Shown piece after piece: positions 6,951 to 27,309 of a stretch of 64,000 nt of DNA (position 1 is its first letter; each line of letters starts with the position of its first letter). This DNA is from Anaerolineaceae bacterium (GTDB lineage: Bacteria > Chloroflexota > Anaerolineae > Anaerolineales > Anaerolineaceae): NCBI GenBank assembly GCA_035388405.1, contig DAOOPV010000007.1:63-64062 (forward strand), given 5' to 3'. The notes beneath the pieces were generated by a model. It worked only from the letters and a program-made list of their open reading frames with translations. It did no database searches and was not told the origin of the DNA. The translations under genes were made by a program, and so were the position numbers.

Positions 6951-7355
6951 TTTCCCCATGAAGATTGTTTGGACCTCTTTTAGCATAAACTCCGGCACAA
7001 TCCATGAGATAGGCAGATCAACGAGGTCGGAAAGTAGCTCGAGATCAAGATGATCAGCATGCCTGTGGGTCAGAACCACCGCCTCCAGGGGAGCCAGGTC
7101 GTTTGCAAAATCCAGGTTGTTTGGCAGAGAGAGGCGTGAGAACAGGGAGAGTGGATCCAAAGCCCAATGGACACCAGCAGTATGGAAGAGGTAATTAGCG
7201 CAGTAAGTCAGCCAGGCGGCATCTGTTTCAGCAGCCCGCCACTGCGCGACCATTTGTTCCCAGAGAGCATGGTAGCCCTCCACAGCGGTTTTTGCTAGAA
7301 GGGCTATCCTGGCTTGTTGGTCTTCGAAATTTATTCTATGCGTAGTATTTTGCAA
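6489..7355 (-). CDS. MBL-fold metallo-hydrolase
   Basis: 288 aa with THRHADHLD (HxHxDH metal motif). It overlaps the upstream PfkB gene stop by 20 nt (operonic). Confidence 0.8.
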   Translation of the reverse strand: MQNTTHRINFEDQQARIALLAKTAVEGYHALWEQMVAQWRAAETDAAWLTYCANYLFHTAGVHWALDPLSLFSRLSLPNNLDFANDLAPLEAVVLTHRHADHLDLELLSDLVDLPISWIVPEFMLKEVQTIFMGKTPKVVIPQPGVPIQIKNLVLTPFEGLHFRDGNGVPEMGYLAEFSGKRWAFPGDTRLFPPESLTKLGSLDGIFAHLWLGKKCALYETPPLLEDFCRFITEPAPRRLVVTHMHELARKPDDFWDTSHFSQVNARCGELNPEILITPAWTGMSVEL

Positions 7356-8229
7356 TGAAGTCTTCCACTTCAGCGAGGGTGCGGTTGAAAATGCCCAGTT
7401 TTTCCACTTTCATACTGGTAACCGCAGCGGCGTATTTTCCAGCTTCGCGGGGTGGAAGGGAGAGGCGCGCGCTCACATATGAACCAAGGCAGGTATCCCC
7501 TCTGCCGCTGCGACCATCCATGCTCTTGGAGTGGAATTCGTAGTGGTGGTTTTGACCATCCGCGTGCACCAGAACTCCGGTTGCGTGGGTGAGCAAGATT
7601 TCTTTCGCGCCCTGCTGCACATAAAAGGCAGCCGCTTTCTCGATATCGGTCTCACCAGTCAGGTATTTGGCTTCCATGGCGTCGGATTTCAAGATATCCA
7701 GATCTGAGAGAACCTCTCTCATTTCATCCCAGGGTTCATAGACAAGGTCCTGCCCGCGCAGCACTCTGACAAAGCCCTGGACATCCGCAGCCAGCAGGAC
7801 GCCTTCACGCGACCGCATGGCGTGGAAAAAGGCGGGTTCCACTTCCCCGCGGATGCTTGGGCTGACCGCGATTGCACGGGCCGTGAGCCCCTCCAGATGT
7901 TCTGGATGGATGGTTCCGGCGGTGTGGGTCACGTAAAGATCGCGTTTGTCCACATCCAGCGTTTTGTATTCCAGGGTCATCAGTGTGGAAGACGGGCTAT
8001 AAATGGGGTAGCAGTCGATTCCATCCGCGCGCAGCATCTGCACTACGTGCTCATCTTCTTTTGCCAGGTGGGTCACCACCGCGCCGCGGAGCCCAAGCGC
8101 CTTGCCGGCGTGGGCGGCATAATTCATGCCACCGCCGTCCACCTGGCGCGTGCCTGCGGGTGTGATGATGGTGTCTTTGGTGTAGTTACCAGCAAAAATT
8201 ACATCATAATGTTTTTCAGTTTTTTCCAT
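7336..8229 (-). CDS. PfkB-family carbohydrate kinase
   Basis: The N-terminus VIFAGNYTKDTII and the C-terminal anion-hole motif GRGDTCLGSY are typical of the ribokinase/PfkB family. The preferred start is ATG at 8229 (MEKTEKHY), preceded by GGAGAAGAG. The ORF-track start at 8268 lacks an RBS. Confidence 0.8.
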   Translation of the reverse strand: MEKTEKHYDVIFAGNYTKDTIITPAGTRQVDGGGMNYAAHAGKALGLRGAVVTHLAKEDEHVVQMLRADGIDCYPIYSPSSTLMTLEYKTLDVDKRDLYVTHTAGTIHPEHLEGLTARAIAVSPSIRGEVEPAFFHAMRSREGVLLAADVQGFVRVLRGQDLVYEPWDEMREVLSDLDILKSDAMEAKYLTGETDIEKAAAFYVQQGAKEILLTHATGVLVHADGQNHHYEFHSKSMDGRSGRGDTCLGSYVSARLSLPPREAGKYAAAVTSMKVEKLGIFNRTLAEVEDFIAKYYA

Positions 8230-8315
8230 TCTCTTCTCCAAAAAAGACAAATACGTTCTAATGTGCAAGCATTTAGCTCCTGTTAGAGGCCGCAGATCTG
8301 ACCGACAGCTTCTCG

Positions 8316-9320
8316 TTAGAAAAGCGCTAACAGTGCAGGCAGCGCGTTTTGGAAGAGCCAGTAAAACAACCCTCCAACGAGCATGGTCGCGGGAATGGTG
8401 ATAACCCAGGCAATCATGATCTCACCGGCCACACCCCAACGCACTTTGCTCATCCGTTCGGCAGCCCCAACACCCATGATGGATGAACTCACCACCTGGG
8501 TTGTGCTGACGGGGCTCCCCAGCAGGGAAGCGGCAATGATTACGATTGCGGAAGTGATCTGCGAGGAAAAGCCGTGGACCGGGCGAATTTTGTAGAACTT
8601 CGAGCCAAGGGTTTTGATCAACTGCCAGCCGCCGAGGGCGGTTCCGATGGCAATTGCTGTCGCGCAGGCTAGCACGACCCAATTTGGCACATGGAAGGTG
8701 GACTGAAAACCGGTAATAACCAAACCGAGGGTGATGATACCCATGGTTTTCTGGGCGTCGTTGGTGCCATGGCTAAGAGCCAGCCCTAAAGACGTGATCA
8801 CCTGTAGTTTCTTGAAGACCCCGTTAATTTTTGGAGTTGCTTTCCAGGAAAGGAGATACACGATGTTGGCAATGATGATGCCTGCCACGAAACCGATGAC
8901 CGGTGAGGCAAATAAGCCAATTAAAATCTTGGTAATACCCTTGATGAGCAGTACCTTGAAACCGGCTTTCACTACCACCGCGCCAATCAAACCGCCGATG
9001 ATGGCATGCGAGGAGCTGCTTGGGATACCCAGGATCCATGTCAGCACGTTCCAAAAGATCGCGCTGAAACACGCAGCCAGGAGCACCATCATGTTGATGT
9101 GTTCAGCGGCGACGATGTCGTTGCCAATGGTGGTAGCGACCGCAACGCCGAAGATAAACGGGCCGACAAAATTCGCCAACGCGGTCATCAGCAGGGCGAT
9201 CTGCGGGCGGATAGCGCGCGATGAGATCATGGTGGCGACGATGTTGCTGGAGTCGTGGACACCGTTGAGGAAATCGAAGATCAACGCGAAGATGATGAGA
9301 AGGATCAGTGAAGCTTCCAT
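8316..9320 (-). CDS. pit: Inorganic phosphate transporter, PiT family
   Basis: 334 aa and polytopic. It has the duplicated PiT signatures GVHDSSNIVAT and GTNDAQKTMGII. Confidence 0.85.
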   Translation of the reverse strand: MEASLILLIIFALIFDFLNGVHDSSNIVATMISSRAIRPQIALLMTALANFVGPFIFGVAVATTIGNDIVAAEHINMMVLLAACFSAIFWNVLTWILGIPSSSSHAIIGGLIGAVVVKAGFKVLLIKGITKILIGLFASPVIGFVAGIIIANIVYLLSWKATPKINGVFKKLQVITSLGLALSHGTNDAQKTMGIITLGLVITGFQSTFHVPNWVVLACATAIAIGTALGGWQLIKTLGSKFYKIRPVHGFSSQITSAIVIIAASLLGSPVSTTQVVSSSIMGVGAAERMSKVRWGVAGEIMIAWVITIPATMLVGGLFYWLFQNALPALLALF

Positions 9321-9331
9321 AATTCTCGGCG

Positions 9332-9952
9332 TTACGAGGTCTTGACCACAATGTCCGCCAGGACGTTGGCGGCTTCATCACTTCGATCCGCGGCATTGCT
9401 CAAGTGGCGATAAACTTCGCGCATCTTCATCGCCTTGACGACACCTTTCAGGTCTTCCGTGTCCTTGAACATGTTCGCCAGGGCTTCCCGGTAGACATGT
9501 TCAATCTTGTTTTCGACCTTTTTGGCGCGGTTGGCATGTTCGGCGGTCACACTCGGGTGATCCTGCAAGCACTCCACGGCCTTCAGCATTTCGAAAGTAG
9601 ATTCCTTGAGCAGTGTGCAGATCTGCACCATGTATTCGGTGGGTTTGACCTTGAAAATGACGATCTCGGTCATGGTGCTATAGGCATAATCTAAAATATC
9701 GTCGATTGCCCTTGAAAGCGCGAAGATATCTTCCCGGTCAAAGGGGGTAATGAAGGTGCGATTCAGTTCATCAATCAACAATCGGCGCGCTTCATCCGCT
9801 TCTTTTTCCTTTGCGGTCAGCTGATCCGCGATTTTTGTGTCGGGATTGATCATGTACGCCAGCAATAGATCTACGCCTTCCAGGGTCAGATTGGTTTGCT
9901 CTTGAATTCTCTGCAGGAAAATATCCCGGCGTTTCTTAAAGATTTTCAACAT
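9332..9952 (-). CDS. DUF47/PhoU-like phosphate-transport regulator partnered with PiT
   Basis: 206 aa, helical. It sits immediately upstream of pit in the usual DUF47-PiT pairing (EADEARRLLIDELNRTFITPFDREDI). Confidence 0.75.
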   Translation of the reverse strand: MLKIFKKRRDIFLQRIQEQTNLTLEGVDLLLAYMINPDTKIADQLTAKEKEADEARRLLIDELNRTFITPFDREDIFALSRAIDDILDYAYSTMTEIVIFKVKPTEYMVQICTLLKESTFEMLKAVECLQDHPSVTAEHANRAKKVENKIEHVYREALANMFKDTEDLKGVVKAMKMREVYRHLSNAADRSDEAANVLADIVVKTS

Positions 9953-11679
9953 GATGTATTCCTCCGTTCAGAGTAGATACTGGCAATACAGCCAGTTTTT
10001 TCCAATAATTTCAGACCAGGCAAGAAATCCTCATACGCAGCTGCGTTGTTGATCTCGAGCGTCCGGACTGCGTGAGCAGGCAAATAGCTTGCCAGCCAGG
10101 CAAAGTCAACATCTCCGGTGCCAGGGAGTTGGTGATCCACGATGTCTTTTACATCATGGAGGTGGACTCCTACCATCCTTGGTGAGAAAGCCTCCAGCCA
10201 TTGTTTGAAAGACATCAATCCAAGGCGATCGTGCACCTGGATGTGTCCAACATCCAATTGCCAGCCCACCCAAGGCTGCTGGAATTCATCCAACAGGACT
10301 TCCAATTCCTCGAAGATGGGGAGTTCGTAGTGATGCAGGCGGTTCTCCAAGCCAAGAAACACACCCAAATCCTTGGAAAAGTCCACGATCTCGGTCAGAC
10401 TGCGGATCAATGCTTCGAGGTGGGGTTTTCCGCGTTCAAGCCGGTCTTTGATCAATTCTTTCCGCAGGGTTTCGTATCCCAGGGTTCCCTTGAGCCCTTC
10501 GCGATACATATCCCTCAGGCGGCTGTCCATGGAGTGGTCGCCATCCACCCGACCTGGGTGGATAACCACGAGCCTGGAACCCAGGCGCCAGGCCAGTTCA
10601 ATGGTGCGTTTTAGCGTGTCCACTCCGACGCGTCTGCGTCCTTCCACCAACGATGTGACCTGAAAATCACCCAATTCGAGCTGTTTGTTCGGGATCACTG
10701 CTGGACAGGGGTCATGGACCGACCCGACATGGTAGCGGTTAAAGTCAAAAGTTTCCAATTCTTCAGGGGTAATCTGGTGATTAAGCTCAAACCGCGCAAA
10801 GCCCAATTCGCGACCCTTGCGGCAAAAATCGTTGGCACTATCGGTGGAACGTGACCACCACATGGTTGAGAGCGCCGCGTCGTAGAGCGTGTCCGAAGCC
10901 AAGGTGGGGGTTGTCACTAAATGTGACCACGCGCCAGGAAAATGTGCCAAACTCTCGTGCAGGGAACTCACGGTGACATCCGCCTGCATTGGGCAAGGGT
11001 TTTCTTCGCGCAATTCAGTCTGGGACTCGATCATGACTACCAGGCCGATGCCAGCTTCGCGCGCGCCAATCAGATCCCGCGAGGGACGATCGCCGATGTA
11101 GGCGCATTCTTCCGGGCGGACACCAAGAGCCTGTGCCGCGGCGATGAAAGGCGAAGGGTGCGGTTTGCGCTTGCCGAAATCTGCGGCTTGCAAAGTGATA
11201 TCAAATAAATCTTTGATGCCAGCCTTATCCAGGAACCTGGGTGAGGTGTGGCTGACAGTTCCGAGGCGATAGCCCCGTTCCTTCAACGTTTTCAGCGCAC
11301 GGATTGTTTCAGTGGGGATGAAACGTTTTCCGCGGGAGTCACCCCACCAGGTCTGTAGTTTATTCGCGTGCTCCGCAATGAATGCAGTGGGGAACTCTGG
11401 CAGCAAGTATTTGCTCCAGCGTTCGGAATAGGACAATTCATCAAGGGAGCGGTAAGACCACTCCTTGTATTCCTTCTCACGTTGGGTGAGCCTTTGGATG
11501 AAGCTCTCAGGACTTTCTTTGAGGTTTAAGAATTGAAGCATCTCAGAAATGATTTCAGGATCCCTGGAATCGTGGTTCAGTTTTTGAACGATTGTGCCAC
11601 CCAAATCAAACAGGATAACCTTGAGTTGGTTTTGATTTTGTGTGGTGATAGCTTCTGGCGAAGAGCAATTAATTACCAT
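9946..11679 (-). CDS. Fusion protein: HAD-like hydrolase domain (N) plus xylose-isomerase-like TIM-barrel sugar-phosphate isomerase/epimerase domain (C)
   Basis: 577 aa. HAD motifs: ILFDLGGT (motif I variant), VSHTS, GKRKPHP, YIGDRPSRDLIGAREAG. The C-terminal half has VVIHPG, GLENR and DVGH, which are TIM-barrel metal-ligand style motifs. Confidence 0.75.
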   Translation of the reverse strand: MVINCSSPEAITTQNQNQLKVILFDLGGTIVQKLNHDSRDPEIISEMLQFLNLKESPESFIQRLTQREKEYKEWSYRSLDELSYSERWSKYLLPEFPTAFIAEHANKLQTWWGDSRGKRFIPTETIRALKTLKERGYRLGTVSHTSPRFLDKAGIKDLFDITLQAADFGKRKPHPSPFIAAAQALGVRPEECAYIGDRPSRDLIGAREAGIGLVVMIESQTELREENPCPMQADVTVSSLHESLAHFPGAWSHLVTTPTLASDTLYDAALSTMWWSRSTDSANDFCRKGRELGFARFELNHQITPEELETFDFNRYHVGSVHDPCPAVIPNKQLELGDFQVTSLVEGRRRVGVDTLKRTIELAWRLGSRLVVIHPGRVDGDHSMDSRLRDMYREGLKGTLGYETLRKELIKDRLERGKPHLEALIRSLTEIVDFSKDLGVFLGLENRLHHYELPIFEELEVLLDEFQQPWVGWQLDVGHIQVHDRLGLMSFKQWLEAFSPRMVGVHLHDVKDIVDHQLPGTGDVDFAWLASYLPAHAVRTLEINNAAAYEDFLPGLKLLEKTGCIASIYSERRNTSC

Positions 11680-11691
11680 AATGAATCGTTT

Positions 11692-13401
11692 CTATACCTT
11701 CTTTACGCAGCCACGGTCGACCAATACCTCGAGACCGCGGGCTATTTGATTTGTTGTGCAGTCTGGCGAAACCTCAAGAGTTCGAAAAATACCGTCTGCC
11801 AAATAAGGGGAAAAGCTCGAAAAATCGACTTCGCCCATACCCGGGGCTAAATGATCCTGCAAGCCGTTCACATCGTGTAAATGCATGCCAATCAGGCGGT
11901 GGTGGAAGCGGCGAAGCCACTCGCCTTTGCCAACCATCCCCAACACTTCCAGGTTGTGAGCATGACCAGCATCGTACTGGAAGCCAAACCAAGGTTCATC
12001 ACACAGCTGCAGGAAGGTTTCCATTTCATCCGGCAGCGGCAAGTCGTGATACCGGTTTCGGTTTTCGAGACCGATGGTGATGCCGGAACCCCTGGCGAAG
12101 GCAATCATTTCCTCCAGGCTGCGGAGCACCTGGCTGAGGTGGGGCTGTTTGTGTTGGTCTCTATCGGCAACGTAATCCTGTTGGAGTTGGATATATTCCG
12201 GAGAGCTGGACTTGCCCTGTAGATACCATTCCCGGATTTTTGTATCCCTGGAATGATCGCAGTGTACCGAACCGCAGTGCACCACCACCGAACGTGAGCC
12301 AAGGCGGACTGCCAGGTCGATGGAACGTTTCAGGTTGTCGACTGCCTTGATGCGGTGGTTTTCATCCAGGCTGGAAAGGGAAATATCCTGTCTCTTCAAC
12401 TCTGTATACCCAAATTCTGAAGGGCAGGGGTCGTGGAGCGTGGCGACGTAATACTTGTTTCGATCCCATTCCTGGTACAAGCGAGGGGTGACCTTGTTGC
12501 TGAATTCAAAGCTGACAAAACCCAGTTTGCGGGCTAAGGCGAAAGTCTCAGAAAAAGGCATCTCCTGATCAGCGCTCCACATCGTGGAGAGCGAAATGTC
12601 GTAAAGCATTTCAGGTTGTTTGGGTTCGATCTCCTTTGAGATAGTCCCATCTACGCCATGGAAGATCTTCAACAACTCGCCAAGGCAACCGATCCGATAT
12701 TGGGGTTTGGTCTCCGTGATGGTTTCTGCCTGGAAGTCATCATCCGGGTCATACTCATCCGTTTGATATCCGCTCATGTTTACGATGATGACCGTGCCAA
12801 ACCCAGCTTGCATAGCCCCGACAAGATCCCTTGAAAGGTTATCTCCGACGTAGGCACAATTCTGGGGCAATACGCCCATTCCCCTTGCGGCTTGCAGGAA
12901 CATGGATGGATGTGGCTTTCGGCTGCCAACCACGCAGGATAAGATCACCGGGTGGAAGTATTCAGTCAAACCATTGTCAGCCAACATGGCGGGGGCTTCG
13001 ACAGATGAGGTCGTGTTGCTTACGATTGAGAGTTTATAGCCCCGTTTGGCAAGTGTTTTGATGGTGTCGACCGCGTCCGGAAAAATCTGGTTATTCCGGG
13101 AAGCCCGCCACATTTGATTTAGCGTGACAGCGTTTTGCCAGACGAATTCGTGGGGAAAGTCGGGCAACATAAATCGCGTCCAAAGTTCCGTCTCGGGCAG
13201 CTCGAGGAGAGTCTTCTTACACCACCTGCGGTATTCCTTCTCGTGTTTTCGAAGCAGGCTCAGGAAGTCAGACGGTTCACCCTCCACCCCCAGGAAGGAT
13301 TGCAGATTGCGGATGTAATCCAGGTTCCCTTCCCTGTTTTTGATGGTCGCGCGGAGTGTGCCACCAACGTCGAAACAAATCGCTTTAATTTCACCAGTCA
13401 T
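11692..13401 (-). CDS. Paralogous HAD-like plus xylose-isomerase-like TIM-barrel fusion protein
   Basis: 569 aa with the same architecture: ICFDVGGT, VSNTTS, GSRKPHP, YVGDNLSRDLVGAMQAG, then VVVHCG, GLENR, DAGH. Confidence 0.75.
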   Translation of the reverse strand: MTGEIKAICFDVGGTLRATIKNREGNLDYIRNLQSFLGVEGEPSDFLSLLRKHEKEYRRWCKKTLLELPETELWTRFMLPDFPHEFVWQNAVTLNQMWRASRNNQIFPDAVDTIKTLAKRGYKLSIVSNTTSSVEAPAMLADNGLTEYFHPVILSCVVGSRKPHPSMFLQAARGMGVLPQNCAYVGDNLSRDLVGAMQAGFGTVIIVNMSGYQTDEYDPDDDFQAETITETKPQYRIGCLGELLKIFHGVDGTISKEIEPKQPEMLYDISLSTMWSADQEMPFSETFALARKLGFVSFEFSNKVTPRLYQEWDRNKYYVATLHDPCPSEFGYTELKRQDISLSSLDENHRIKAVDNLKRSIDLAVRLGSRSVVVHCGSVHCDHSRDTKIREWYLQGKSSSPEYIQLQQDYVADRDQHKQPHLSQVLRSLEEMIAFARGSGITIGLENRNRYHDLPLPDEMETFLQLCDEPWFGFQYDAGHAHNLEVLGMVGKGEWLRRFHHRLIGMHLHDVNGLQDHLAPGMGEVDFSSFSPYLADGIFRTLEVSPDCTTNQIARGLEVLVDRGCVKKV

Positions 13402-13423
13402 ATTTGGGTCCTGTCTGTTTTTA

Positions 13424-14854
13424 TCAGCCCTGCAAGCAGGACACCTTTGGAATTTCGCGAATATCGTTTATGTATGCATCTGCCAGGGTTCCAGCGTCGT
13501 AGTTTAGCGCGATGGTTTTCATGCCAATCTCGCGCGCTCCGTCGATCTCTGCTTTCTTGTGCCCCACAAAGACCGCGTCGCAAGGATCCACGCCAACCTG
13601 GGTCAAGGCGCGCTGGTACATTTCGGGGTCAGGTTTGCGCGCGCCAACTTCTTTTGAGCTGATCACAGAATCCCAGACTCTGCCAAAACCATGCTGGTCA
13701 AACCAATTCAGTTTGATCGAGAAAGCCATGGCGGTGTCGGTGATGATACCGAGCATGTACCCCCTTTCTTTGAGTTCCAGGATCGTTTCTGGAGCTCCGC
13801 AGATGATCTCGACGTTGTTGTCGTCGGCTTGCATCGCGTCCATCCCCTCAGAAATCAAATCCGGATCCGTAATGCCAAGAAAACGGATAAGCTGTTCATA
13901 AAAGCCGTGGCGCGGGAGTTTGCCTGTGAATGCCAGCGCTTTAAGTCGTTTTCTCTCATCATCGAAACCTTTTGGAAATTCCAACTGGTGTGAATCAAGA
14001 AACGCTCTAAGATGCTGATCTTTATGCGGCCTGGTGTAGAGGATGTCGCCGGCGTCAAAGAAGATGGCCTTCACTTTGTGTCCATTATCGTTTCGAGCTG
14101 TCTGCGCGTCCTGGTCGAGGTATTGCTTGATCAGTGGGATCAATTCGGTCATGTCGTCGATCTGGGCATCAGGCTTGGCGCCTTCGTCAGGTTCACCATT
14201 ATCATAGATGTGGTGGATCTTGATGGCTGCCCTGAAACCAGCTCTTTGCGCACCCAGGATGTCGCGGTTGACTTTGTCGCCGATGTAGATACAAGCGCTG
14301 GTTGGCACCTGCGCCAGGCGTGCCGCGTGGTAAAAAATTGCCGGGTCAGGTTTGCGCCGACCATATTCGGAAGAGAGAACAACCGGGTCAAAGTAGCAGT
14401 CAATCCCATACTCCTTGAGGCTGTAAGGGACCTGTTGACTGCTCTGTGTGTTGCTGATGCAACCTATCTTTAAGCCCATTTTCTGGATTTCAGCCAGAAC
14501 CTGCGGAATTTCAGGACGCATCTTACGCGTAAACAGACGTGTTTCGTAGATGAAGGCCAACTCCTCGGCAATGGGTTTCAAATCTGCAGGGTTCAGGTGG
14601 AGATCTTTTAGGAAATAGGTTGCCCAGATCTCGGCTGGTTTGAGCTCCACGTTGGTTACCATGTTCCAGCGCAGATACTCTGACGTGCCTGCCGTGATCA
14701 TGTCTGCCAGGCATGTGTCCGAACAGGAGTTTATGATGCCTGTACGGCTGAGGCATTCGCGTACCGCAGAAACAGCCTTTATTCTCTGTTCCCTGGTGTA
14801 ACGGAATGTGTCAATCGTACCTCCCATGTCGAAAAAGACAGCTTTAAGCATCAT
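13424..14854 (-). CDS. Tandem double HAD-like hydrolase
   Basis: 476 aa. The first domain has VFFDMGGT...ISNTQS...GRRKPDP...YIGDKVNRDILGAQRAG. The second has IFFDAGD...ITDTA...GARKPDP...FVGHKKAEIDGAREIG. Confidence 0.75.
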   Translation of the reverse strand: MMLKAVFFDMGGTIDTFRYTREQRIKAVSAVRECLSRTGIINSCSDTCLADMITAGTSEYLRWNMVTNVELKPAEIWATYFLKDLHLNPADLKPIAEELAFIYETRLFTRKMRPEIPQVLAEIQKMGLKIGCISNTQSSQQVPYSLKEYGIDCYFDPVVLSSEYGRRKPDPAIFYHAARLAQVPTSACIYIGDKVNRDILGAQRAGFRAAIKIHHIYDNGEPDEGAKPDAQIDDMTELIPLIKQYLDQDAQTARNDNGHKVKAIFFDAGDILYTRPHKDQHLRAFLDSHQLEFPKGFDDERKRLKALAFTGKLPRHGFYEQLIRFLGITDPDLISEGMDAMQADDNNVEIICGAPETILELKERGYMLGIITDTAMAFSIKLNWFDQHGFGRVWDSVISSKEVGARKPDPEMYQRALTQVGVDPCDAVFVGHKKAEIDGAREIGMKTIALNYDAGTLADAYINDIREIPKVSCLQG

Positions 14855-14898
14855 AGTGTCACCGTGTTGTATTTGTAATTTTTTGACCCGTTTTTTTT

Positions 14899-14933
14899 AT
14901 CAGGCACGAATTTTTTGAGGATTCGTGCCTGAT
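14899..14933 (-). terminator. Strong stem-loop downstream of the ABC substrate-binding-protein gene (13-bp stem, no canonical U tract)
   Basis: atcaggcacgaat / tttttgagg / attcgtgcctgat, read directly. On the minus-strand RNA the hairpin is followed by AUAAAAAAAAC rather than U-rich sequence. It may be an mRNA-stabilising or attenuating hairpin rather than a classic terminator. Confidence 0.45.
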
Positions 14934-14959
14934 TGATCGAAAATCTCAGCAGAATCTGG

Positions 14960-16165: not shown

Positions 16166-16290
16166 TTCTTTCTCCTTCTGTAGTTGGTTCAAAGTTGTTA
16201 AAAACATCGACTGTCCATTGCTCAGTTTTCTTCTCTCTAATGACCTCCTTGGCAGGTAACAAAAAGGGTTCACTGGATTCTCGACTCTCT

Positions 16291-17373: not shown

Positions 17374-17385
17374 GTTCTCCTCGTT

Positions 17386-19221: not shown

Positions 19222-19338
19222 CTTGTCTCTCCTCTCAGTACAATTACTACCTTTACATATCTCTTGTGCATACTAGAACATTGAACCTCCAGGTGTAAAG
19301 ATTTTCCAGTACTTACATACTGTTTATCAGTAAAAGCG

Positions 19339-20229: not shown

Positions 20230-20307
20230 AACACCTCGGTGCAGATCCTTGATCAAAAAAAGGGACAACAATATCTGTGTTCGTGAAATACCACTTACAT
20301 TTGAAAC

Positions 20308-20336
20308 AGTATAGTGCAATTGAATAAAAATTGCAA
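20308..20336 (-). promoter_or_regulatory. Sigma70-like promoter candidate for the RpiR gene (TTGCAA-17 nt-TATACT on the minus strand)
   Basis: The minus strand reads ttgcaa tttttattcaattgcac tatact. This puts the -35 at 20331-20336 and the -10 at 20308-20313. The short inverted repeat tgcaat..attgca overlaps it. Confidence 0.4.
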
Positions 20337-20355
20337 GATAAATTTCATAAATTCA

Positions 20356-21579
20356 TTAATTTTCGTTGCTCGTTACTGTCAGAAGTGGCTGTATCCCAGG
20401 AGTGGCCCAAATCTCGACCCGTGAAGTGTCCACCACCAGTTCGCAAAGCTCCATTTGCGGCTTATAGACCTGTTCGGCCATCAGGAATTGCTCCCGGAAA
20501 TAGCGATTCAAGAAGTAATACAGTTCATACTTCTTTCGAAAGTCCATATCGCGCCGCCATTTGCGCTTCAGGCGCACGGCATCATCGGTGATGTACATCA
20601 CCTTTATTCCGGTCAAAGCCGCGATTTCAGGCAGGAGGAATGGGAAGTTCCCTTCCATGAAGATGATGTCAGCGGGTTCAATGCGCATAGTATCCCGCCC
20701 CGGTTTGAGCTTTCCATCGAGAGCATGGCTTGAGGTTGCGGAAATAAAGTCATATTGAGGTGTCATCGCGGCTCTACCAGCTCGCAGATCCTCAAGTGCT
20801 CGTGTCAGCATCTCAAAGTGCAGGGCTTCCTGGCCAAGCGAGTCAATCCCATGCGCTTCCCGATAATCCCGATCCGTCAGAAAGTGGTCAATCTCGAGAC
20901 CCGAGATACTCTTGCCGGTGCTTTGAAAGGCTTGCTGCAGCCGTTCGACGATTTCGGTCTTGCCCGCCGCAGTCTGACCAGCAATGGCGATCAAGATGGG
21001 GGTGCCCATCTTTTCTACCAACGAGTGAACAATCCTGATGAAGGCCTCATCCACTTCCTCGTTTGCCTTCTTGAAGTCTTTGTAGCCAACGGCAGGCAGG
21101 TTTTGGAGGTCGTTCTGCAGGCGTTCAAATGCCAGGAAAGGTTTTCCGCCAAGATGCGCGATGATGTTTTCAGTGTAATATTCTGACCGGTGGATGAAGT
21201 AGAACCCACGCGGATCAAAGGTAAAGTGTTTTTCCACCCAATCCGTTGGGTAGTCGCCAGTAGTCAGACCTACAAAGAGCATCCGCAACAGCGAGAGGAT
21301 TTGGGGGTCCATGGTTGGGCGATTATCCAGTTTGGGTTTGAGTTGAATACCAGAATAAAAGGCAGCGCTGTTGACCATCTGCTCAATTTCATCCTTGCTC
21401 TTCAACTCCACTGATTGCCAACCCGGTTTCGGGGTGATGTTCTCGAGGCAATAGCGAAACTCGAACAACTCAAGGCCGTTTAGCGCCGGGCAGAGAGTAA
21501 CCATCTTTTCAAAAAGCTTTTCCGAAAAGAGATCGTTGTTTTGGAGGAGGGGGTTCGGCATATCTTTCACTTCTTCCAT
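20356..21579 (-). CDS. PRK/uridine-kinase-family P-loop kinase with about 190-aa N-terminal domain of unknown function
   Basis: 407 aa. Walker A is GQTAAGKT. The C-terminal half has the uridine kinase/phosphoribulokinase-like layout (IIFMEGNFPF...RLKRKWRRD). It is a paralogue of 22826-24004. Confidence 0.7.
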   Translation of the reverse strand: MEEVKDMPNPLLQNNDLFSEKLFEKMVTLCPALNGLELFEFRYCLENITPKPGWQSVELKSKDEIEQMVNSAAFYSGIQLKPKLDNRPTMDPQILSLLRMLFVGLTTGDYPTDWVEKHFTFDPRGFYFIHRSEYYTENIIAHLGGKPFLAFERLQNDLQNLPAVGYKDFKKANEEVDEAFIRIVHSLVEKMGTPILIAIAGQTAAGKTEIVERLQQAFQSTGKSISGLEIDHFLTDRDYREAHGIDSLGQEALHFEMLTRALEDLRAGRAAMTPQYDFISATSSHALDGKLKPGRDTMRIEPADIIFMEGNFPFLLPEIAALTGIKVMYITDDAVRLKRKWRRDMDFRKKYELYYFLNRYFREQFLMAEQVYKPQMELCELVVDTSRVEIWATPGIQPLLTVTSNEN

Positions 21580-21582
21580 TTA

Positions 21583-22788
21583 TTACGCTCCGTATTTGGA
21601 CACTCTTCCGGCATTTGCCAGCGCGATCGGCATGACGTGGTAAGCGGGGATCTGCCCAAGGTTTCCTTGGGCGCAGTTGGTTTCCCCAAATTCTGTGAAT
21701 TTGTCCGCGCGAACGTACTTCGCGTACATGAGCAGCGGCACTGGATGCCAGCTGTGAGATTTGAGCACCGCCGGGGAGGAATGGTCGCCCCCGATGATCA
21801 CCACGTCCGGGTTCAATGCCATCAAGCGGGGCAGTTGGGCATCAAACTCTTCGATGGCTTTTACTTTTGCGTCGAAATCTCCGATTTCTCCATAAGTATC
21901 TGTCTTTTTGAAGTGCAGGTAGAAAAAATCATATTCTGACCAATGCTTTTCAAGGCAGTCAAATTCATCGCTGAGGTCTGAGCCGTTCACCGGGAGCACG
22001 TTCATGCCCACCAACCTTGCCACTCCGCGGTACATGCCGTTAACAGCGATAGCCGCGGCATTTAATTTAAAGATGTCCGGATATTTGGGCATCGTGGGGA
22101 ATTTGGCAAAGCCGCGCAGCAGGATCATGTTGGCGGGGGCTTCGTTTTTGAGAACCACTTCTGCCTGTTCCAGGAATGCGTTGACAAGCGCTGCGGTCCG
22201 CACCGAGCTTTCATCCAACGCCTGAACCTTTAGAGGCGCAGCGCCAGTGACCAATGGGTCAGAGTCCGTCAGCGAGGTCCCCAAGCCTGGTGCCCGCAAT
22301 ACGAGCACAAAACGGTGCTCCTTGACAACTTCCACGAACACTTCCGCGCCGTCCAACTTGATGGTTCGCAGTTTTTGGACGAGCCGTTCACTGTCACAAG
22401 TAGGCAACCTGCCAGCACGGCGGTCCACCAGGAGCCCATTTTCGTCAACGACGCAGAAGTTACCCCTGGCTGCCACATCGTCCGGACCAAGCTCAAAATC
22501 CACGCCCAGGGCTTCCAAAGCCCCTCGTCCTATTTGATATTCCAGGGGATTAAAGCCAAAGATCGAGAGGTGACCGGGACCACTGCCGACCGTAATGCCA
22601 GGACCGGCGGGGATGGTCATCCCCAGGGCTGATTTTTGCGCCAAGGCGTCCATGTTAGGTTTGCAGGCTGTTTCGAGTTCGGTTTTGCCGCCCTCTTCGC
22701 GTGGGAGCCCGCCCAAACCATCCATGATCAACAGCACAATCTTTGTGTCTGCTTCAACGATCTGCCCACGGAAGAATTCATCGAACAT
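21583..22788 (-). CDS. Archaeal-type cofactor-independent phosphoglycerate mutase family protein (ApgM-like, alkaline-phosphatase superfamily)
   Basis: KIVLLIMDGLGG...GSGPGHLSIFG...VVIGGDHSSP...SHSWHPVP is the ApgM/COG3635 pattern. The preferred start is ATG 22788 (MFDEFF). The track start at 22899 would overlap the upstream gene. Confidence 0.75.
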   Translation of the reverse strand: MFDEFFRGQIVEADTKIVLLIMDGLGGLPREEGGKTELETACKPNMDALAQKSALGMTIPAGPGITVGSGPGHLSIFGFNPLEYQIGRGALEALGVDFELGPDDVAARGNFCVVDENGLLVDRRAGRLPTCDSERLVQKLRTIKLDGAEVFVEVVKEHRFVLVLRAPGLGTSLTDSDPLVTGAAPLKVQALDESSVRTAALVNAFLEQAEVVLKNEAPANMILLRGFAKFPTMPKYPDIFKLNAAAIAVNGMYRGVARLVGMNVLPVNGSDLSDEFDCLEKHWSEYDFFYLHFKKTDTYGEIGDFDAKVKAIEEFDAQLPRLMALNPDVVIIGGDHSSPAVLKSHSWHPVPLLMYAKYVRADKFTEFGETNCAQGNLGQIPAYHVMPIALANAGRVSKYGA

Positions 22789-22825
22789 GGCGTGCCTCTT
22801 CTCTCTTGTTTTCTCTATCCATGCA

Positions 22826-24004
22826 TCAATCTGCCAACCGGGCTTGCAAGTCTGGATGGAGCCACAAATGCGCGTTGCTGGTATCCACGATGATGTCACA
22901 ACACTGCATCATGGGTTGGTAGATTTCCTGATTTCGCTGAAACTGGGTTCGAAAATAGCGGTTCGCCAGGTAGTGCGGATCATATTTCTTGCGGAAGTCC
23001 ACGTCCCGCTTCCACTTCCGTTTCAGTCGGCTGGGGTCATCGGCAAAGTAGACAATCTTCAGATTGATCAACCTGGCGATTTCGGGAATGTGGAACGGGA
23101 AGTTGCCTTCCAGGATGATGATGTCAGCTGGCTGGATGGTTTGGGTAGACTGACCCGGGCGAAGGAGACCATCCAAATCGTGGCTGGAGGTCGCCTGGAT
23201 GAAATCATAACGGGGGATAACCGCCGCTTCGCCGCGCAGAAGCGCGTTGATTGCTTCAATGAAGAGGGGATAATGAATGACGGCTGCATCCATCGGTCGC
23301 CCATCGCGAAAAATGCGATCCTTGTAGAAGTTATCCATCTCCACTGAGGTGCAAGAAAAACCGGATTCTTTTAAAGACTGTAATAATCGGGCGGTGATTT
23401 CAGATTTGCCTGAGGCAGTTGGTCCGACGATCGTCAGCAACAGCGGTGTGCTGCTGGAAGATATCAGAGATTGAACAACCCGGATGAATGTTTGGTCTGT
23501 TTCCTGATTCGCCTTGGCAAATTCTTTGTAGCCAACCTCGAACTTGTTTTTCAGGAGTGCTTGCCTTGCTTCAAAGCTTTTGTATGGCGCGCTGCCAAAG
23601 CGCTGGCGAATTGTGGGGGTGAGGTAAGCGGTGCGGACAAAAAATACGAAAGCACGCACGTCAAAGTAAAAGTGCTGATCCACCCATTGGATCGGGTAGA
23701 GTCCCTCAACCAGGCCAACAAAAAGCTCCCTGGTCAGGGACACGATCATGTTATCGAGGATGATCTGGTCGTTATGTTTTGGTTTTAGTTGGATGTTGGC
23801 GAAGAATTCCGGGGTGGCAATTCTTTCCAGCAGGGTTTCGATCGATTCTGGCTGAACGCTTGCCCAGCCTTCTGCAGGTTGGAGGTTCTTCAAGGCGTAT
23901 TGGAACTCGTATAACTCCAGTTCGGCAACACCAGGATTAATCTGCTGAAGCTTCACAAACAAGTCAGTCGTAAATTGTTTAGGATCAACCAAGTTCGCAG
24001 GCAT
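22826..24004 (-). CDS. PRK/uridine-kinase-family P-loop kinase, paralogue 2
   Basis: 392 aa. Walker A is GPTASGKS. Its N-terminal domain (ELELYEFQYALKNLQPAEGW...IQLKPKHND) parallels that of the 407-aa paralogue (GLELFEFRYCLENITPKPGW...IQLKPKLDN). Confidence 0.7.
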   Translation of the reverse strand: MPANLVDPKQFTTDLFVKLQQINPGVAELELYEFQYALKNLQPAEGWASVQPESIETLLERIATPEFFANIQLKPKHNDQIILDNMIVSLTRELFVGLVEGLYPIQWVDQHFYFDVRAFVFFVRTAYLTPTIRQRFGSAPYKSFEARQALLKNKFEVGYKEFAKANQETDQTFIRVVQSLISSSSTPLLLTIVGPTASGKSEITARLLQSLKESGFSCTSVEMDNFYKDRIFRDGRPMDAAVIHYPLFIEAINALLRGEAAVIPRYDFIQATSSHDLDGLLRPGQSTQTIQPADIIILEGNFPFHIPEIARLINLKIVYFADDPSRLKRKWKRDVDFRKKYDPHYLANRYFRTQFQRNQEIYQPMMQCCDIIVDTSNAHLWLHPDLQARLAD

Positions 24005-24026
24005 TCGTTAACACCTTTACTCGTAG

Positions 24027-25604
24027 TTACCAGGGAGTACCCTGCCCCAGTACCATCGCTTCGTAGGCTTTTTTGATCTTGCCGTAATTACCATCCCGGT
24101 CCAGGGCGATCCCTCGTCCGACGGCGGTGACGATCGTCCCAAGTCCGATTTTGCGCATTTCACCCTCCAGCTTTTCCAGCAGGGCTGGTGCGCTGCCTGG
24201 CTCGGTGCTGCGTCCATCAAAGATCAGGTGCAGAAACGCGTTTGATAGACCTTTTTCTTTAGCCATTCGCAGGAGAGCCAGGGGGTAGTCGATTGAACCA
24301 TGTGAGCTTTTCTCGGTCAGGAGGCCGATCAGGTGCAGATTGCTCCCTTTGCGGAGGACGTTTTCGATCGTCTCGACGAAGACTTCATTTTTCGCAAACG
24401 AGCCGTCTTTAAGCGCCAGATCCAGGCGCACGTCATCTTGCAAAACAACCCGCCCCGCGCCAATGTTCATGTGACCCGCTTCCGAATTGCCAGGCTTGCC
24501 GGCTTGCAACCCAACCGCTTCACCGGAAGCTTGCAGATGAGCCAGTGGAAAATCCCGGCAGAGAGCATCCCAGGTGGGTGTGGTTGCGACAAAAATGGGA
24601 TTGTTTTCGTCCTGGCTGCCTTCCCCCCAACCATCGAGGATGATCAGCAGAACCTTGCGGTCCTTTCCCCAGTAGTGGGGTTTCACCAAGGCTGCACCCG
24701 TCATGGAAGGATGTGTTTCGACACCCAGTATGTCCAAAATGGTCGGGGTGAGGTCCCGCAGACTGCCATCTGAGAGTTGAATGTCACCCTTAGCCTGGGG
24801 GTCGATCACGATAAAGGGCACCAGGTTGGAAGTGTGTGCCACGTGCGGCTTGCCTTCAGCGGTAAGCAGCACTTCAAGGTTGCCGTGGTCGGCTGTGATC
24901 AGCGAAACATAACCCCCGGATTTGGCAACCTGCAAAACCCGGGCAAGGTGCTCATCCACAGCCTGGGCGCAAGCAATCTTCGCTTCGCTGTTACTGGTGT
25001 GCCCAATCACGTCACCGTTGGCAAAGTTGGTCACGATGCAGTCAATGCCTTCTCGCAGACCGCGAATGACTTCATCAGCCACAGCGGGCAGGCTGAGCTC
25101 CGGAACCTGGTCAAAGGGGATGCCTTTGGGTGAAGGGACACGCACATCCACTTCGCCGGGGTAAGGCTGATTGTTTCCGCCATTCAAAAAGAAGGTGACG
25201 TGAGCGAATTTTTCGGATTCCGAGCAGCGCATTTGCGTTTTGCCAGCCTTGCTCAGGAGTTCGCCGAGGGTGTGGTCGAGTTTTGCGGGCGCAAAAGCAA
25301 CCGGCAGGTCTTTGAATTTGTCGTGATACAAAGTGAGGATGACAAATTCGAGGTCCTGCAACCGAGTGCGTTCAAAATGCGCAAAATCGGTTTCAGTGAA
25401 GGCTTCGGTAAGCTCAATTTCCCTCTCGCCCCGGCGGCAGCAGAAAATGACCGCGTCACCGTCCTGAACCTTTGCGAAGGGCTGCCCCTCCGGATTCAGG
25501 CGCACGTGAGGCTCCATGGAATAATCGGTCTGTCCGCGCGCGTAAGCTTTGCGAACTGCTTCAGCGAGGAGAAAGCCGCCGTGTTTGACTTCACTCGTGT
25601 TCAT
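24027..25604 (-). CDS. Circularly permuted 2,3-bisphosphoglycerate-independent phosphoglycerate mutase (GpmI-family) homologue
   Basis: All iPGM signature blocks are present but reordered. NGDVIGH, TADHGN and the C-terminal MTGAALVKP lie at aa about 195-308. The canonical N-terminal blocks LLIILDGWG and GNSEAGHMNIGAGR lie at aa about 318-385. The protein ends at ...LDRDGNYGKIKKAYEAMVLGQGTPW, which is a mid-protein block in canonical enzymes. Confidence 0.8.
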   Translation of the reverse strand: MNTSEVKHGGFLLAEAVRKAYARGQTDYSMEPHVRLNPEGQPFAKVQDGDAVIFCCRRGEREIELTEAFTETDFAHFERTRLQDLEFVILTLYHDKFKDLPVAFAPAKLDHTLGELLSKAGKTQMRCSESEKFAHVTFFLNGGNNQPYPGEVDVRVPSPKGIPFDQVPELSLPAVADEVIRGLREGIDCIVTNFANGDVIGHTSNSEAKIACAQAVDEHLARVLQVAKSGGYVSLITADHGNLEVLLTAEGKPHVAHTSNLVPFIVIDPQAKGDIQLSDGSLRDLTPTILDILGVETHPSMTGAALVKPHYWGKDRKVLLIILDGWGEGSQDENNPIFVATTPTWDALCRDFPLAHLQASGEAVGLQAGKPGNSEAGHMNIGAGRVVLQDDVRLDLALKDGSFAKNEVFVETIENVLRKGSNLHLIGLLTEKSSHGSIDYPLALLRMAKEKGLSNAFLHLIFDGRSTEPGSAPALLEKLEGEMRKIGLGTIVTAVGRGIALDRDGNYGKIKKAYEAMVLGQGTPW

Positions 25605-25628
25605 CGCGCTATCCTCCAGAAAGATCCC

Positions 25629-26396
25629 CTATTTGTGTGCCTGAAATTTTTCATCAAGGACCACTCTCGGGCATGATGGGAAGATTTCAAGCAGATCTGT
25701 AAATTGATGAATGATCAGGTCAGGCCGGTTTTCATCCGTGATGGTTGATTCGGCTAATTCTTCCGGGCTGATGAGAATGATTGTCATCCCGAAGCCAGCT
25801 GCACGGGTTCCAGTGACATCGCGTTTCAGATTATCCCCAACATAGGCGCAGCGTGAAGGGTCTACCCCCGCGTTTTGGGCAGCGATGTGGTAAATGGCTG
25901 GGTCGGGTTTGCGAATTCCCAAGACGGAAGAAAGCGCAATAGATTTGAAGTAGGGGGTGAAGCCATCCGCTTCCATCCACTCAGGGATTTCGCTGGTGGT
26001 GATCAGGTTGCTGATGATGCCAAGCGAGTAACCCCGGTCAAAAAGGGTTTGCACCACTTCCTTGCCGTTTTCCACGACCACTCGCAGCCCCATCGACTGG
26101 CGATACTGGTAGGTCAATTCGGTGCCAAGCGGTCCGATGCGTTCTGCGGGAAAATCATAAGCCAGCCAACGCGTCCAAAGTTCGGATTCGGGTGCTTCGC
26201 GCATGGTATCAAAGGCCCACTTGCGATAAACCTTGTAGCGTTGGTCCAGCTTTTCGCAGAAAGCTACAGGGTCCTCGTCTGTTCCAACCAGATCCACAAT
26301 TCTCTGCCTGGCTCTGGCTTGGTGGTCGTCATTCTTCGTTAATATCCGCAGCGTGTTCCCAAGGTCGAGAAAAACCGCTTCAATTTCCTGGATCAT
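25629..26396 (-). CDS. HAD-like hydrolase (DxGNT motif I variant)
   Basis: 255 aa: VFLDLGNT, ISNLIT, GIRKPDP, YVGDNLKRDVTGTRAAG. Confidence 0.8.
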   Translation of the reverse strand: MIQEIEAVFLDLGNTLRILTKNDDHQARARQRIVDLVGTDEDPVAFCEKLDQRYKVYRKWAFDTMREAPESELWTRWLAYDFPAERIGPLGTELTYQYRQSMGLRVVVENGKEVVQTLFDRGYSLGIISNLITTSEIPEWMEADGFTPYFKSIALSSVLGIRKPDPAIYHIAAQNAGVDPSRCAYVGDNLKRDVTGTRAAGFGMTIILISPEELAESTITDENRPDLIIHQFTDLLEIFPSCPRVVLDEKFQAHK

Positions 26397-26427
26397 TATT
26401 CAGCCTTCCTATTTATTATTACCGTGT

Positions 26428-27159
26428 TTATGAACGCGGAGGGAATATATCAAGGAGCTGCTTTATTTCCTTAATAACATAATCAGGTTTGAGGTCAGTC
26501 GATTGCGGTTCTTTGGCTAAGGTGTCTGGTTCTTCAATGAGGACCATCATACCGAATCCAGCTGCCTGGGTTCCTTCGACGTCACGGATGGGGTTATCAC
26601 CAAGATAAGCGCATTTGGAGGGGTCTACGCCCATCACCCTGGCTGCCAGCAGGTAAATCGCTGGGTCGGGTTTGCGAATCCTGACCTTGGAGGAAAGGAT
26701 CACGGTCTTAAAATAGCCGGTCACGCCATCTGATATCATCCAGTCCGGGATTTCAGTTTCTGTGATTGTGTTGGCGATAATTCCCAGTTGATAGCCACGG
26801 CGGTGAAGTTCCGCGACAGTATCTTTGGCGTCCTCACGGGGAACGCGCCTGCCATCGCGATCACGCCACAGCCGGGTCAGGCGGCTCACGTTCGGCGCGA
26901 TGATCTCGATGGGGTAGTCTGGCAGGAGCCACTGTGTCCAGAGTTCCAATTCGGACGCATCGAGGAGCGATTTCTTAGCGAGACTGCGGTAGGCTTTCCA
27001 GTTTTTTTCCAACTTTTCGAAGAAAACTTCAGGAGTTTCAGTCGCGTTGACCAACGTCATCAGGTCATCTTTGGCTTGTTGTTGAAACTCGGGATCTTCT
27101 TTAACAATACGCAGTGTGTTTCCTACATCCAAGAAAATGGCTTCAATTTCAGGTGTCAT
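26428..27159 (-). CDS. HAD-like hydrolase (DxGNT motif I variant), paralogue
   Basis: 243 aa: IFLDVGNT, IANTIT, RIRKPDP, YLGDNPIRDVEGTQAAG. Confidence 0.8.
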   Translation of the reverse strand: MTPEIEAIFLDVGNTLRIVKEDPEFQQQAKDDLMTLVNATETPEVFFEKLEKNWKAYRSLAKKSLLDASELELWTQWLLPDYPIEIIAPNVSRLTRLWRDRDGRRVPREDAKDTVAELHRRGYQLGIIANTITETEIPDWMISDGVTGYFKTVILSSKVRIRKPDPAIYLLAARVMGVDPSKCAYLGDNPIRDVEGTQAAGFGMMVLIEEPDTLAKEPQSTDLKPDYVIKEIKQLLDIFPPRS

Positions 27160-27270
27160 TATTCCTCCGGGAGCGATTTGACTTGCAAAATTACTTAAAA
27201 TGTAACGAATCTTTCAATTGCATATCTTACGACAAGATCAACCAATTTGCAAGTAATCTTTCGAAAACTA

Positions 27271-27299
27271 TTGACTTTTGGCCCAAGAGCCTGTAAACT
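27271..27299 (+). promoter_or_regulatory. Sigma70-like promoter candidate of the LacI-family operon (TTGACT-17 nt-TAAACT)
   Basis: ttgact at 27271-27276, a 17-nt spacer, and taaact at 27294-27299. The palindromic operator starts 11 nt downstream. Confidence 0.5.
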
Positions 27300-27309
27300 A
27301 TATTCATCA

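Follow-up and report, generated by a model that had tools for sequence, protein, structure and literature searches.

An Anaerolineaceae operon combining an ABC importer with phosphate-handling enzymes is coupled to inositol catabolism

The closest described systems to the locus reported here are found in Thermotoga maritima. Its protein TM0415 is a pyrophosphate (PPi)-dependent myo-inositol kinase of the ribokinase family (Nagata et al. 2018, PMC5931981) and its gene shares an operon with those of a myo-inositol ABC transporter and with iol genes (PMC5931981, PMC3750489); a gnd-uxaE-uxaD-gntE-gntK gene set has been described for the same organism (PMC3750489). An RXGRGD motif and five donor-site residues (K171, F221, R229, R232 and M266) define the TM0415-type kinases, and phosphorylation of inositol with PPi, and not ATP or ADP, as donor was shown for homologue No. 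49, from Levilinea saccharolytica (Anaerolineae), whose acceptor site departs from that of TM0415 by N78L, S89L and L116S (PMC5931981). The same study doubted that inositol is the true acceptor, given a Km of 12 mM and non-specific products (PMC5931981). We analysed a stretch of 64,000 nucleotides ("the window") from an Anaerolineaceae metagenome-assembled genome common in anaerobic-digester metagenomes (assembly GCA_035388405.1, contig DAOOPV010000007.1, positions 63 to 64,062 of the forward strand). On its minus strand lies an operon of 17 genes, one of them a TM0415-type kinase gene, and the locus places the PPi-dependent inositol kinases, a family with an open role since 2018, in a physiological context.

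The block is physically coupled to inositol catabolic operons of two types. In the best explanation, to which we assign a probability of roughly 40%, it would be one half of a myo-inositol utilisation island specific to Anaerolineaceae, the half for uptake and phosphate handling: the operon would import a phosphorylated inositol compound, release the inositol and handle the phosphate. The genes, which span 6489-27159, are as follows.

6489-7355, minus strand: MBL-fold hydrolase, last gene of the operon (Pfam Lactamase_B_2, E 1.9e-14; HRHADH metal motif)
7336-8229, minus strand: predicted PPi-dependent kinase of the ribokinase family (PfkB-like, TM0415 type; TM0415 in the PDB at E 1e-40; no Pfam match)
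8316-9320, minus strand: PiT inorganic phosphate transporter (Pfam PHO4, 288 bits)
9332-9952, minus strand: DUF47/PhoU_div partner of PiT (Pfam PF01865, E 1.3e-18)
9946-11679, minus strand: HT2, fusion of a HAD domain and an Endonuclease IV (Endo IV)-like TIM barrel, facultative duplicate (Pfam Hydrolase, AP_endonuc_2)
11692-13401, minus strand: HT1, fusion of a HAD domain and an Endo IV-like TIM barrel, core copy (Pfam Hydrolase, AP_endonuc_2; HAD motif I DVGGT)
13424-14854, minus strand: double HAD protein (two Pfam stretches; TIGR02253, 198 bits)
14960-16165, minus strand (longest open reading frame to 16273): lipoprotein substrate-binding protein (SBP) of the ABC importer (Pfam SBP_bac_8/11/1/6; LVSC lipobox)
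16291-17373, minus strand: ABC ATPase with a MalK-type C-terminal domain (Pfam ABC_tran, OB_MalK)
17386-19221, minus strand: fused two-domain ABC permease of the PhnU2/FbpB type (two BPD_transp_1 domains)
19339-20229, minus strand: RpiR/MurR regulator with a SIS domain (Pfam HTH_6, E 4.9e-15; SIS, E 1.8e-08; called as 296 aa)
20356-21579, minus strand: Kin1, P-loop kinase of the PRK/uridine-kinase fold (Pfam PRK, residues 196-383)
21583-22788, minus strand: aPGM, homologue of archaeal-type iPGM (NF003160, 566.8 bits against a cut-off of 468; Pfam PhosphMutase, Metalloenzyme)
22826-24004, minus strand: Kin2, second orphan-domain P-loop kinase, facultative (46% identical to Kin1 over its full length)
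24027-25604, minus strand: cpPGM, circularly permuted iPGM of bacterial type (by alignment to the Bacillus stearothermophilus iPGM)
25629-26396, minus strand: HADb, single-domain HAD with motif I DLGNT (Pfam/NCBIfam, motif inspection)
26428-27159, minus strand: HADa, single-domain HAD with motif I DVGNT, first gene, divergent from lacI (Pfam/NCBIfam, motif inspection)

An original prediction, made from the sequence of the window, had proposed a co-directional block with these components, and the open reading frame listing together with Pfam and NCBIfam scans bore out every one. Its tally of three kinases, two mutases, six HAD domains and one phosphate transporter was also right. It had listed the MBL hydrolase correctly but had let the block start at 7336, which leaves the body of that gene outside, with an overlap of 20 nucleotides. 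Neighbouring genes overlap or are separated by 3-40 nucleotides, with the exception of four gaps of 105-126 nucleotides around the RpiR and SBP genes and one of 86 nucleotides before the PPi kinase gene. A scan for promoters and terminators gave signal at chance level, and an Rfam search found no riboswitch.

Loci in other genomes were collected by exact-protein look-ups and by an SBP-seeded scan of GTDB species genomes. There were 53 such loci, every one in Anaerolineaceae (Anaerolinea, Longilinea, Leptolinea and others). A tblastn synteny table gave a common gene order, in which brackets mark variable members: [HAD(s)], permuted iPGM, [kinase], aPGM, [kinase], RpiR, permease, ATPase, SBP, double HAD, HAD/TIM, [second HAD/TIM], DUF47, PiT, PfkB-like kinase, MBL, [kinase]. 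The core, consisting of RpiR, the ABC system, the double HAD, one HAD/TIM fusion, DUF47, PiT, the PPi kinase and MBL, is syntenic in the 53 genome loci and in some 40 longer metagenome loci. The latter came from a metagenome scan seeded with the TIM domain, which returned 80 loci; all those long enough to assess (about 40) have the core, at identities down to 37%. RpiR stands upstream of the permease in all loci and MBL follows the PPi kinase in nearly all, while PiT is present in most and missing in L082, L089, L139 and L140. The second HAD/TIM gene, one small HAD gene and the second kinase gene are facultative duplicates: HT2 is missing from many loci, Kin2 is missing or relocated in many, and in one large clade a single kinase gene has shifted behind MBL, to the far end of the operon. 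The HAD-mutase-kinase module is accessory. Identity is highest for the transporter proteins (about 70-90% in most loci) and about 35-65% for the enzymes. The best 120 matches of each homologue search held only close Anaerolineaceae relatives and no other phyla. The most divergent SBP match of the genome scan (L062, 51% identity) has its genes split into short open reading frames, probably because it is a frameshift-rich long-read assembly, and was kept out of inference.

Because the same order recurs in 53 genome and about 40 metagenome loci, we conclude that the block is a conserved unit and no chance juxtaposition. Might it nevertheless be several unrelated operons that happen to adjoin, namely a phosphate transporter, a sugar-phosphate regulon and glycolytic mutases? 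The four gaps of 105-126 nucleotides would fit such a patchwork, as would the separable HAD-mutase-kinase module and the loss of PiT and DUF47 from a few loci. Against it, order and content are kept at 40-60% protein identity in more than 50 species. The HAD-TIM fusion was seen in no other context in the genome and metagenome scans, and the orphan-domain kinase likewise appears in this context only. We therefore regard a patchwork as very improbable.

Divergently from the block runs a plus-strand operon at 27339-43729, with four parts.

27339-28364, plus strand: LacI-family regulator, divergent from the block (Pfam LacI, Peripla_BP)
28354-34512, plus strand: genes for tagaturonate to ribulose-5-phosphate, encoding UxaE, D-mannonate oxidoreductase, a LarA-like hexonate epimerase, Gnd and a PfkB sugar-acid kinase
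34594-40000, plus strand: a Zn-ADH paralogue, IolG, IolN, IolM and IolO (myo-inositol to tagaturonate, Thermotoga type)
40031-43729, plus strand: a GlcD-like FAD oxidase, EtfB and EtfA with a ferredoxin domain (Pfam)

As read from its genes, this operon is a complete Thermotoga-type route from myo-inositol to ribulose-5-phosphate. IolG (424 bits against a cut-off of 355), IolN (310 against 245), IolM (516 against 450) and IolO (342 against 300) all exceed their NCBIfam equivalog cut-offs, as do D-mannonate oxidoreductase (NF006132, 389 against 281) and Gnd (690 against 413). UxaE scores 484 bits in Pfam, and the best match of the LarA-like protein is a putative hexonate epimerase that depends on Ni. 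A transporter gene is missing from this operon, and hence the ABC system of the block is the only importer of the island. The lacI gene lies beside HADa in other genomes as well.

A second type of inositol operon accompanies the block in three loci (L053, L060 and L063). Here no lacI gene stands beside RpiR, and Bacillus-type IolG (463 against 355), IolE, IolD (924 against 715) and a transaldolase-like protein are found instead; the HAD-mutase-kinase module is missing within 10 kb. The co-variation of the module with the type of iol genes comes from this single clade and is weak evidence. That the same core is attached to inositol catabolism of two designs is, in our view, the strongest evidence for a functional link.

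The T. maritima locus (TM0411-TM0416, InoEFGK, uxaE-uxaD-gntE-gntK-gnd) shares with the window IolG, IolM, IolN, IolO, UxaE, mannonate oxidoreductase, hexonate epimerase, the kinase and Gnd, and in both a TM0415-type kinase sits beside an ABC importer. The two differ in that the Thermotoga importer is of another ABC family and in what the window adds: six HAD domains, Endo IV-like TIM domains, PiT with DUF47, MBL, two PGM-type mutases and orphan-domain kinases. To our knowledge, none of these added components is part of the Thermotoga locus.

The PfkB-like protein of the block carries RSGRGD around its catalytic Asp, a motif invariant in 37 loci. Its donor site is identical to that of TM0415 at K171, F221, R229 and R232 (four of the five residues), with Val at M266, and the catalytic D234 is kept. 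At acceptor positions 78, 89 and 116 it has Leu, Leu and Ser, the substitutions of No. 49; homologues of the window kinase are called as 297 aa. These residues mark the gene as a probable orthologue of TM0415 and of the Levilinea homologue, both PPi-dependent myo-inositol kinases.

The kinase signature and the neighbouring inositol operons of two types make the polyol nameable: with fair confidence, the compound handled by the block would be inositol. The original prediction had been unable to map the block to any pathway and had recognised no entry into central metabolism; both statements fall with the inositol operons, the divergent one being a complete route to ribulose-5-phosphate. Its broader view of one functional block for uptake and phosphoryl-group chemistry on a polyol is supported. 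So is its expectation that the genes are not assembled from already characterised pathways, as the PfkB-like kinase is the sole gene with a characterised orthologue. It had also offered synthesis of a phosphorylated solute, which seems less likely beside catabolic neighbours and an importer.

How would such an operon work? In the reading that we prefer, a fused-permease ABC importer of the Fe3+/thiamine/phosphonate type would bring in a phosphorylated inositol compound, for which an inositol phosphodiester, such as glycerophosphoinositol, or inositol phosphates are candidates. The RpiR/SIS regulator would control the importer and sense a phospho-intermediate. The Endo IV-like TIM domains and MBL would cut phosphodiester or cyclic-phosphate bonds, and the HAD domains, three of them fused to or paired with TIM domains, would take over phosphoryl groups. 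PiT and DUF47 would then move the resulting inorganic phosphate, and the PPi kinase would interconvert inositol and inositol monophosphate with PPi and inorganic phosphate, in either direction. Free inositol would be oxidised by IolG, IolM, IolN and IolO and pass through UxaE, mannonate oxidoreductase, the hexonate epimerase, the kinase and Gnd to ribulose-5-phosphate.

Over positions 33-590 the permease of the importer matches TIGR03262 (PhnU2) with 165 bits against a cut-off of 593. The best NCBIfam matches of the ATPase are UgpC, GlcV and PhnT2, all below cut-off (PhnT2, 321 against 458), and no NCBIfam model matched the SBP. With all components short of their cut-offs or unmatched, the system is not recovered as the equivalog 2-aminoethylphosphonate transporter type 2 (PhnS2T2U2). 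We favour import of phosphorylated inositol because the permease and ATPase are nearest to the PhnU2, PhnT2 and UgpC types and because PiT and DUF47 are embedded in the operon. The regulator belongs to the RpiR/MurR family by its HTH_6 and SIS domains.

Could the ABC system import free myo-inositol or another cyclitol? On this account the PPi kinase would phosphorylate it, the HADs, mutases and kinases would make and recycle inositol phosphates, which could serve as inducer, lipid head-group precursor or solute, and the bulk would be catabolised next door. In T. maritima, TM0415 is indeed encoded with a myo-inositol ABC transporter, the divergent operon of the window requires free inositol and this ABC system is its one source within the island, and Trp, Tyr, Asp, Glu, Asn and Gln abound among the invariant residues of the SBP. 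However, the fused permease is nearest to putative 2-aminoethylphosphonate (PhnU2), ion or polyamine permeases and not to a sugar family, and a kinase and a HAD acting on one compound would make a futile cycle. Free-inositol import would also leave the embedded PiT and DUF47, the phosphoesterase-like TIM domains and MBL unexplained. We consider it unlikely.

SBP identity is 70-90% across Anaerolineaceae. A second SBP class at about 40% identity occurs in L093, L105, L126, L127, L136 and L139-L142, where the partner permease, ATPase and enzymes are 60-75% identical, and L089 holds two SBP copies. The second class and the double copy suggest a family of related ligands.

The HAD domains have an unusual active site. 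Across about 45 species, motif I is D-x-D in none of the six: five domains show D-x-G-[GN]-T and the sixth D-A-G-D. Five domains have motifs II-IV (Ser/Thr, Lys and the Mg-binding GDxxxD), whereas the C-terminal half of the double HAD combines motif I DAGD with a degenerate motif IV, GH..E, that has no Asp. The Asp at position +2 (Asp+2) is the general acid/base of HAD phosphatases and mutases, and its absence is otherwise known from phosphonatase, dehalogenases and P-type ATPases. Among families and PDB entries, the best matches belong to the HAD-IA TIGR02253/CTE7 group (N-acylneuraminate-9-phosphatase, PH1655, PH0459), which shares the nucleophilic Asp and motifs II-IV with the block but differs at Asp+2, replaced by Gly in all block domains. 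Because Asp+2 is missing, the HADs of the block fall outside the ordinary sugar phosphatases. Their targets may be good leaving groups (an anhydride, or an acyl or cyclic phosphate); alternatively, they may make use of a second, neighbouring phosphate on the substrate or form a long-lived phospho-enzyme.

The TIM domains fused to HADs in HT1 and HT2 (35% identical to each other) keep the motifs HDPCP, iHpG, ENR, DxGH, HlHD, DH and TlE in at least 90% of 40 sequences. By eye, motif by motif, they match the nine metal ligands of Escherichia coli Endo IV, for which the reference sequence was verified as identical to PDB 1QTW. The IolO of the window lacks four of the nine; compared with the E-D-H-E ligand set of xylose-isomerase-like isomerases and epimerases, the TIM domains have additional His and Asp ligands that are missing in IolO. 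The best family matches are weak, to IolO and CbiR, both at E values of about 1e-6 to 1e-7. Scores against isomerase and epimerase models (IolO, 31 against a cut-off of 300; IolE, 16-19 against 290) place the domains outside the isomerases IolO, IolE and Hyi. The nine motifs matched by eye and the weak CbiR match point towards the metal-dependent phosphodiesterases Endo IV and CbiR (AP_endonuc_2), from which the block domains differ in being fused to HADs and in scoring far below cut-off. We infer that the fused barrels are probably metallo-phosphoesterases and not isomerases. MBL, for which the PDB gave no sequence relative, is a candidate (cyclic) phosphodiesterase.

In the accessory module, cpPGM departs from the canonical domain order (N-terminal part of the phosphatase domain, transferase domain, C-terminal part of the phosphatase domain). 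Its residues 316-523 align to residues 4-211, and 15-307 to 218-509, of the B. stearothermophilus iPGM (PDB 1EJJ), which puts the new termini close to canonical residue 214; in 35 species the permuted order is colinear. The TIGR01307 score of 476 bits is the sum of two stretches. The Ser62 motif, the Mn ligands and the substrate Arg cluster are invariant in 36-38 loci, and Lys336 is also conserved. With 1EJJ the protein thus shares the catalytic Ser, Mn ligands, Lys336 and Arg cluster, but in addition to its permutation it has DGRS for DGRD, Asp154 being Ser in 38/38 loci. A full-text literature search combining a permuted iPGM with the DGRS change found no paper. aPGM surpasses the curated cut-off of the PGM equivalog (NF003160).

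The P-loop kinases carry a P-loop, a catalytic Asp and a confidently folded N-terminal domain of about 190 aa that found no match in Pfam, in PDB profile searches or in a fold search. The AlphaFold2 model of Kin1 has a pLDDT of 91, and Foldseek matched UCK2, PRK and PanK to its C-terminal half only. Uridine kinase and PRK models gave 66-68 bits against cut-offs of 180-236, which puts the proteins outside the curated families, and the extra N-terminal domain sets them apart from single-domain kinases. An all-against-all HMMER comparison yielded only 4-5 full-length clusters at 50% identity and then generic uridine kinases. By this measure the orphan-domain kinase family is a lineage-specific invention. 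The likeliest of the candidate roles of the module are to move phosphate between neighbouring hydroxyls or to process a phosphoglycerate-like moiety of the substrate; a PRK-like action on ribulose-5-phosphate made by Gnd was considered as a third option.

Several observations weigh against import and dephosphorylation of a phosphorylated inositol compound. All six HAD domains have Gly in place of the Asp+2 that ordinary phosphomonoesterases need, and plain dephosphorylation is not assured. The link between the TIM domains and Endo IV was made by motif inspection: MAFFT misaligns three of the nine motifs, hhalign of the TIM profile against the single Endo IV sequence gave no significant alignment, and the family scores are far under cut-off (CbiR, 28 against 105). 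Sequence and profile searches of the PDB with the SBP returned only partial, weak matches to Fe(III)-binding proteins, uninformative on the ligand; its AlphaFold model (pLDDT 33) is too poor to read pocket or fold, and its conservation is too high to read out binding-pocket residues. A few variants of the operon do without DUF47 and PiT. Finally, both mutases have active sites like those of true phosphoglycerate mutases, which a role in inositol metabolism leaves unexplained.

Alternatively, the module could consist of a glycerate kinase and phosphoglycerate mutases, with a C3-acid or phosphoglycerate-like part of the substrate entering glycolysis as 2-phosphoglycerate or 3-phosphoglycerate while the inositol part would go to the iol enzymes. 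aPGM scores over the PGM equivalog cut-off, cpPGM retains Ser62, the Mn ligands and the phosphoglycerate-binding Arg cluster, and some plant-type glycerate 3-kinases are P-loop kinases of the PRK fold. Yet the kinases have no specific likeness to any glycerate kinase model, the DGRD motif of cpPGM is invariably DGRS, and loci with Bacillus-type iol genes do without the module. We know of no natural compound of inositol and phosphoglycerate. A glycerate module is therefore, in our view, doubtful to a high degree.

Matches of the kinases to the PRK subfamily and to uridine kinase are of similar strength, and the HADs have weak matches to the haloarchaeal ribulose-bisphosphate 5-phosphatase model. 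Together with the co-occurrence of the module with the Gnd-containing operon, and its absence beside Bacillus-type iol genes, this could point to a variant pentose bisphosphate pathway, in which the PRK-fold kinases act on ribulose-5-phosphate made by Gnd and the HADs and mutases process the pentose bisphosphate. However, RuBisCO, ribose-1,5-bisphosphate isomerase and aldolase are all missing at the locus, every match is far below cut-off, many genomes have a single kinase at the far end of the importer operon, after MBL, and the co-variation comes from one clade only. We give this pathway very little credence.

A bolder version of inositol phosphate use would be the energy-conserving breakdown of inositol (poly)phosphates, such as phytate, in a strict fermenter, with phosphoryl groups recovered and not just hydrolysed. 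The TM0415-type kinase would run in reverse to make PPi, with inorganic phosphate supplied by PiT. The orphan-domain kinases would likewise run in reverse, on crowded inositol polyphosphates, and make ATP; the mutases would shift phosphates between neighbouring hydroxyls; and the HADs lacking Asp+2 would be long-lived phospho-enzyme carriers and no hydrolases. We judge this joint scheme improbable.

Two other candidates were dropped. The transporter of PhnU2/PhnT2-like type, the HAD motif resembling that of PhnX and the enzymes of the alkaline-phosphatase fold had suggested a phosphonate catabolic cluster; it was set aside because a transaminase, a dehydrogenase and a C-P enzyme are all missing and the metalloenzymes are clearly of PGM type. 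Uptake of cyclic 2,3-diphosphoglycerate from methanogens would fit the kinases, the mutases and anhydride-acting HADs, but it leaves the inositol link unexplained and was abandoned as the leading explanation.

What is already known, then, is the pathway of the neighbouring operon and the recently defined kinase family of the PfkB-like gene. In the literature we found no described counterpart of the importer, the set of HADs lacking Asp+2, the HAD/Endo IV-like fusions, the permuted iPGM or the orphan-domain kinases, and nothing relevant on ABC uptake of phytate or on Anaerolineae and inositol. Judged from its genes, we rate the locus as an inositol utilisation locus with what would be an unprecedented phosphate-processing arm, and not as a categorically new system.

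Few bacteria of anaerobic digesters, sediments and sludge are as abundant, and as poorly understood, as the Anaerolineaceae. Tied to inositol catabolism, the lineage-wide 20-kb operon would suggest a niche for them, for example the scavenging of inositol phosphates or of inositol phospholipid head groups, and also a route by which organic phosphorus is turned over. Four enzyme types are of interest in themselves: the circularly permuted iPGM, the orphan-domain P-loop kinases, the HADs without the general acid and the HAD-Endo IV-like fusions.

Some further features of the window were noted. The GlcD-like/EtfB/EtfA trio, in which the ferredoxin domain of EtfA is N-terminal, closes the inositol operon here; in L048 and L050 (about 17900-21200) the same trio lies directly downstream of MBL, on the strand of the phospho-operon. 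Its link to the inositol system is uncertain. An open reading frame of 154 aa at 27195-27659 is an antisense shadow of lacI and no gene, its apparent conservation following that of lacI.

Beyond the MBL end of the operon, a long open reading frame at 67-2997 (976 aa) has no Pfam match. The stretch 4000-6300, of about 40% GC, separates the MBL gene from an HD-domain gene (3255-3812) and contains an orphan open reading frame (5176-6210) without a Pfam match. In L012, a close relative, the HD gene follows downstream of the MBL gene at a distance of no more than about 1 kb, which makes the stretch look like a recent insertion. At the other end of the window, 44000-64000 is a low-GC mobile element. 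Its genes encode an AadA-like nucleotidyltransferase, a GNAT protein, a serine recombinase, a relaxase, a Schlafen/AlbA protein, a RadC-ArdC polyvalent protein, a CHAP-domain protein and a TraG-like ATPase.

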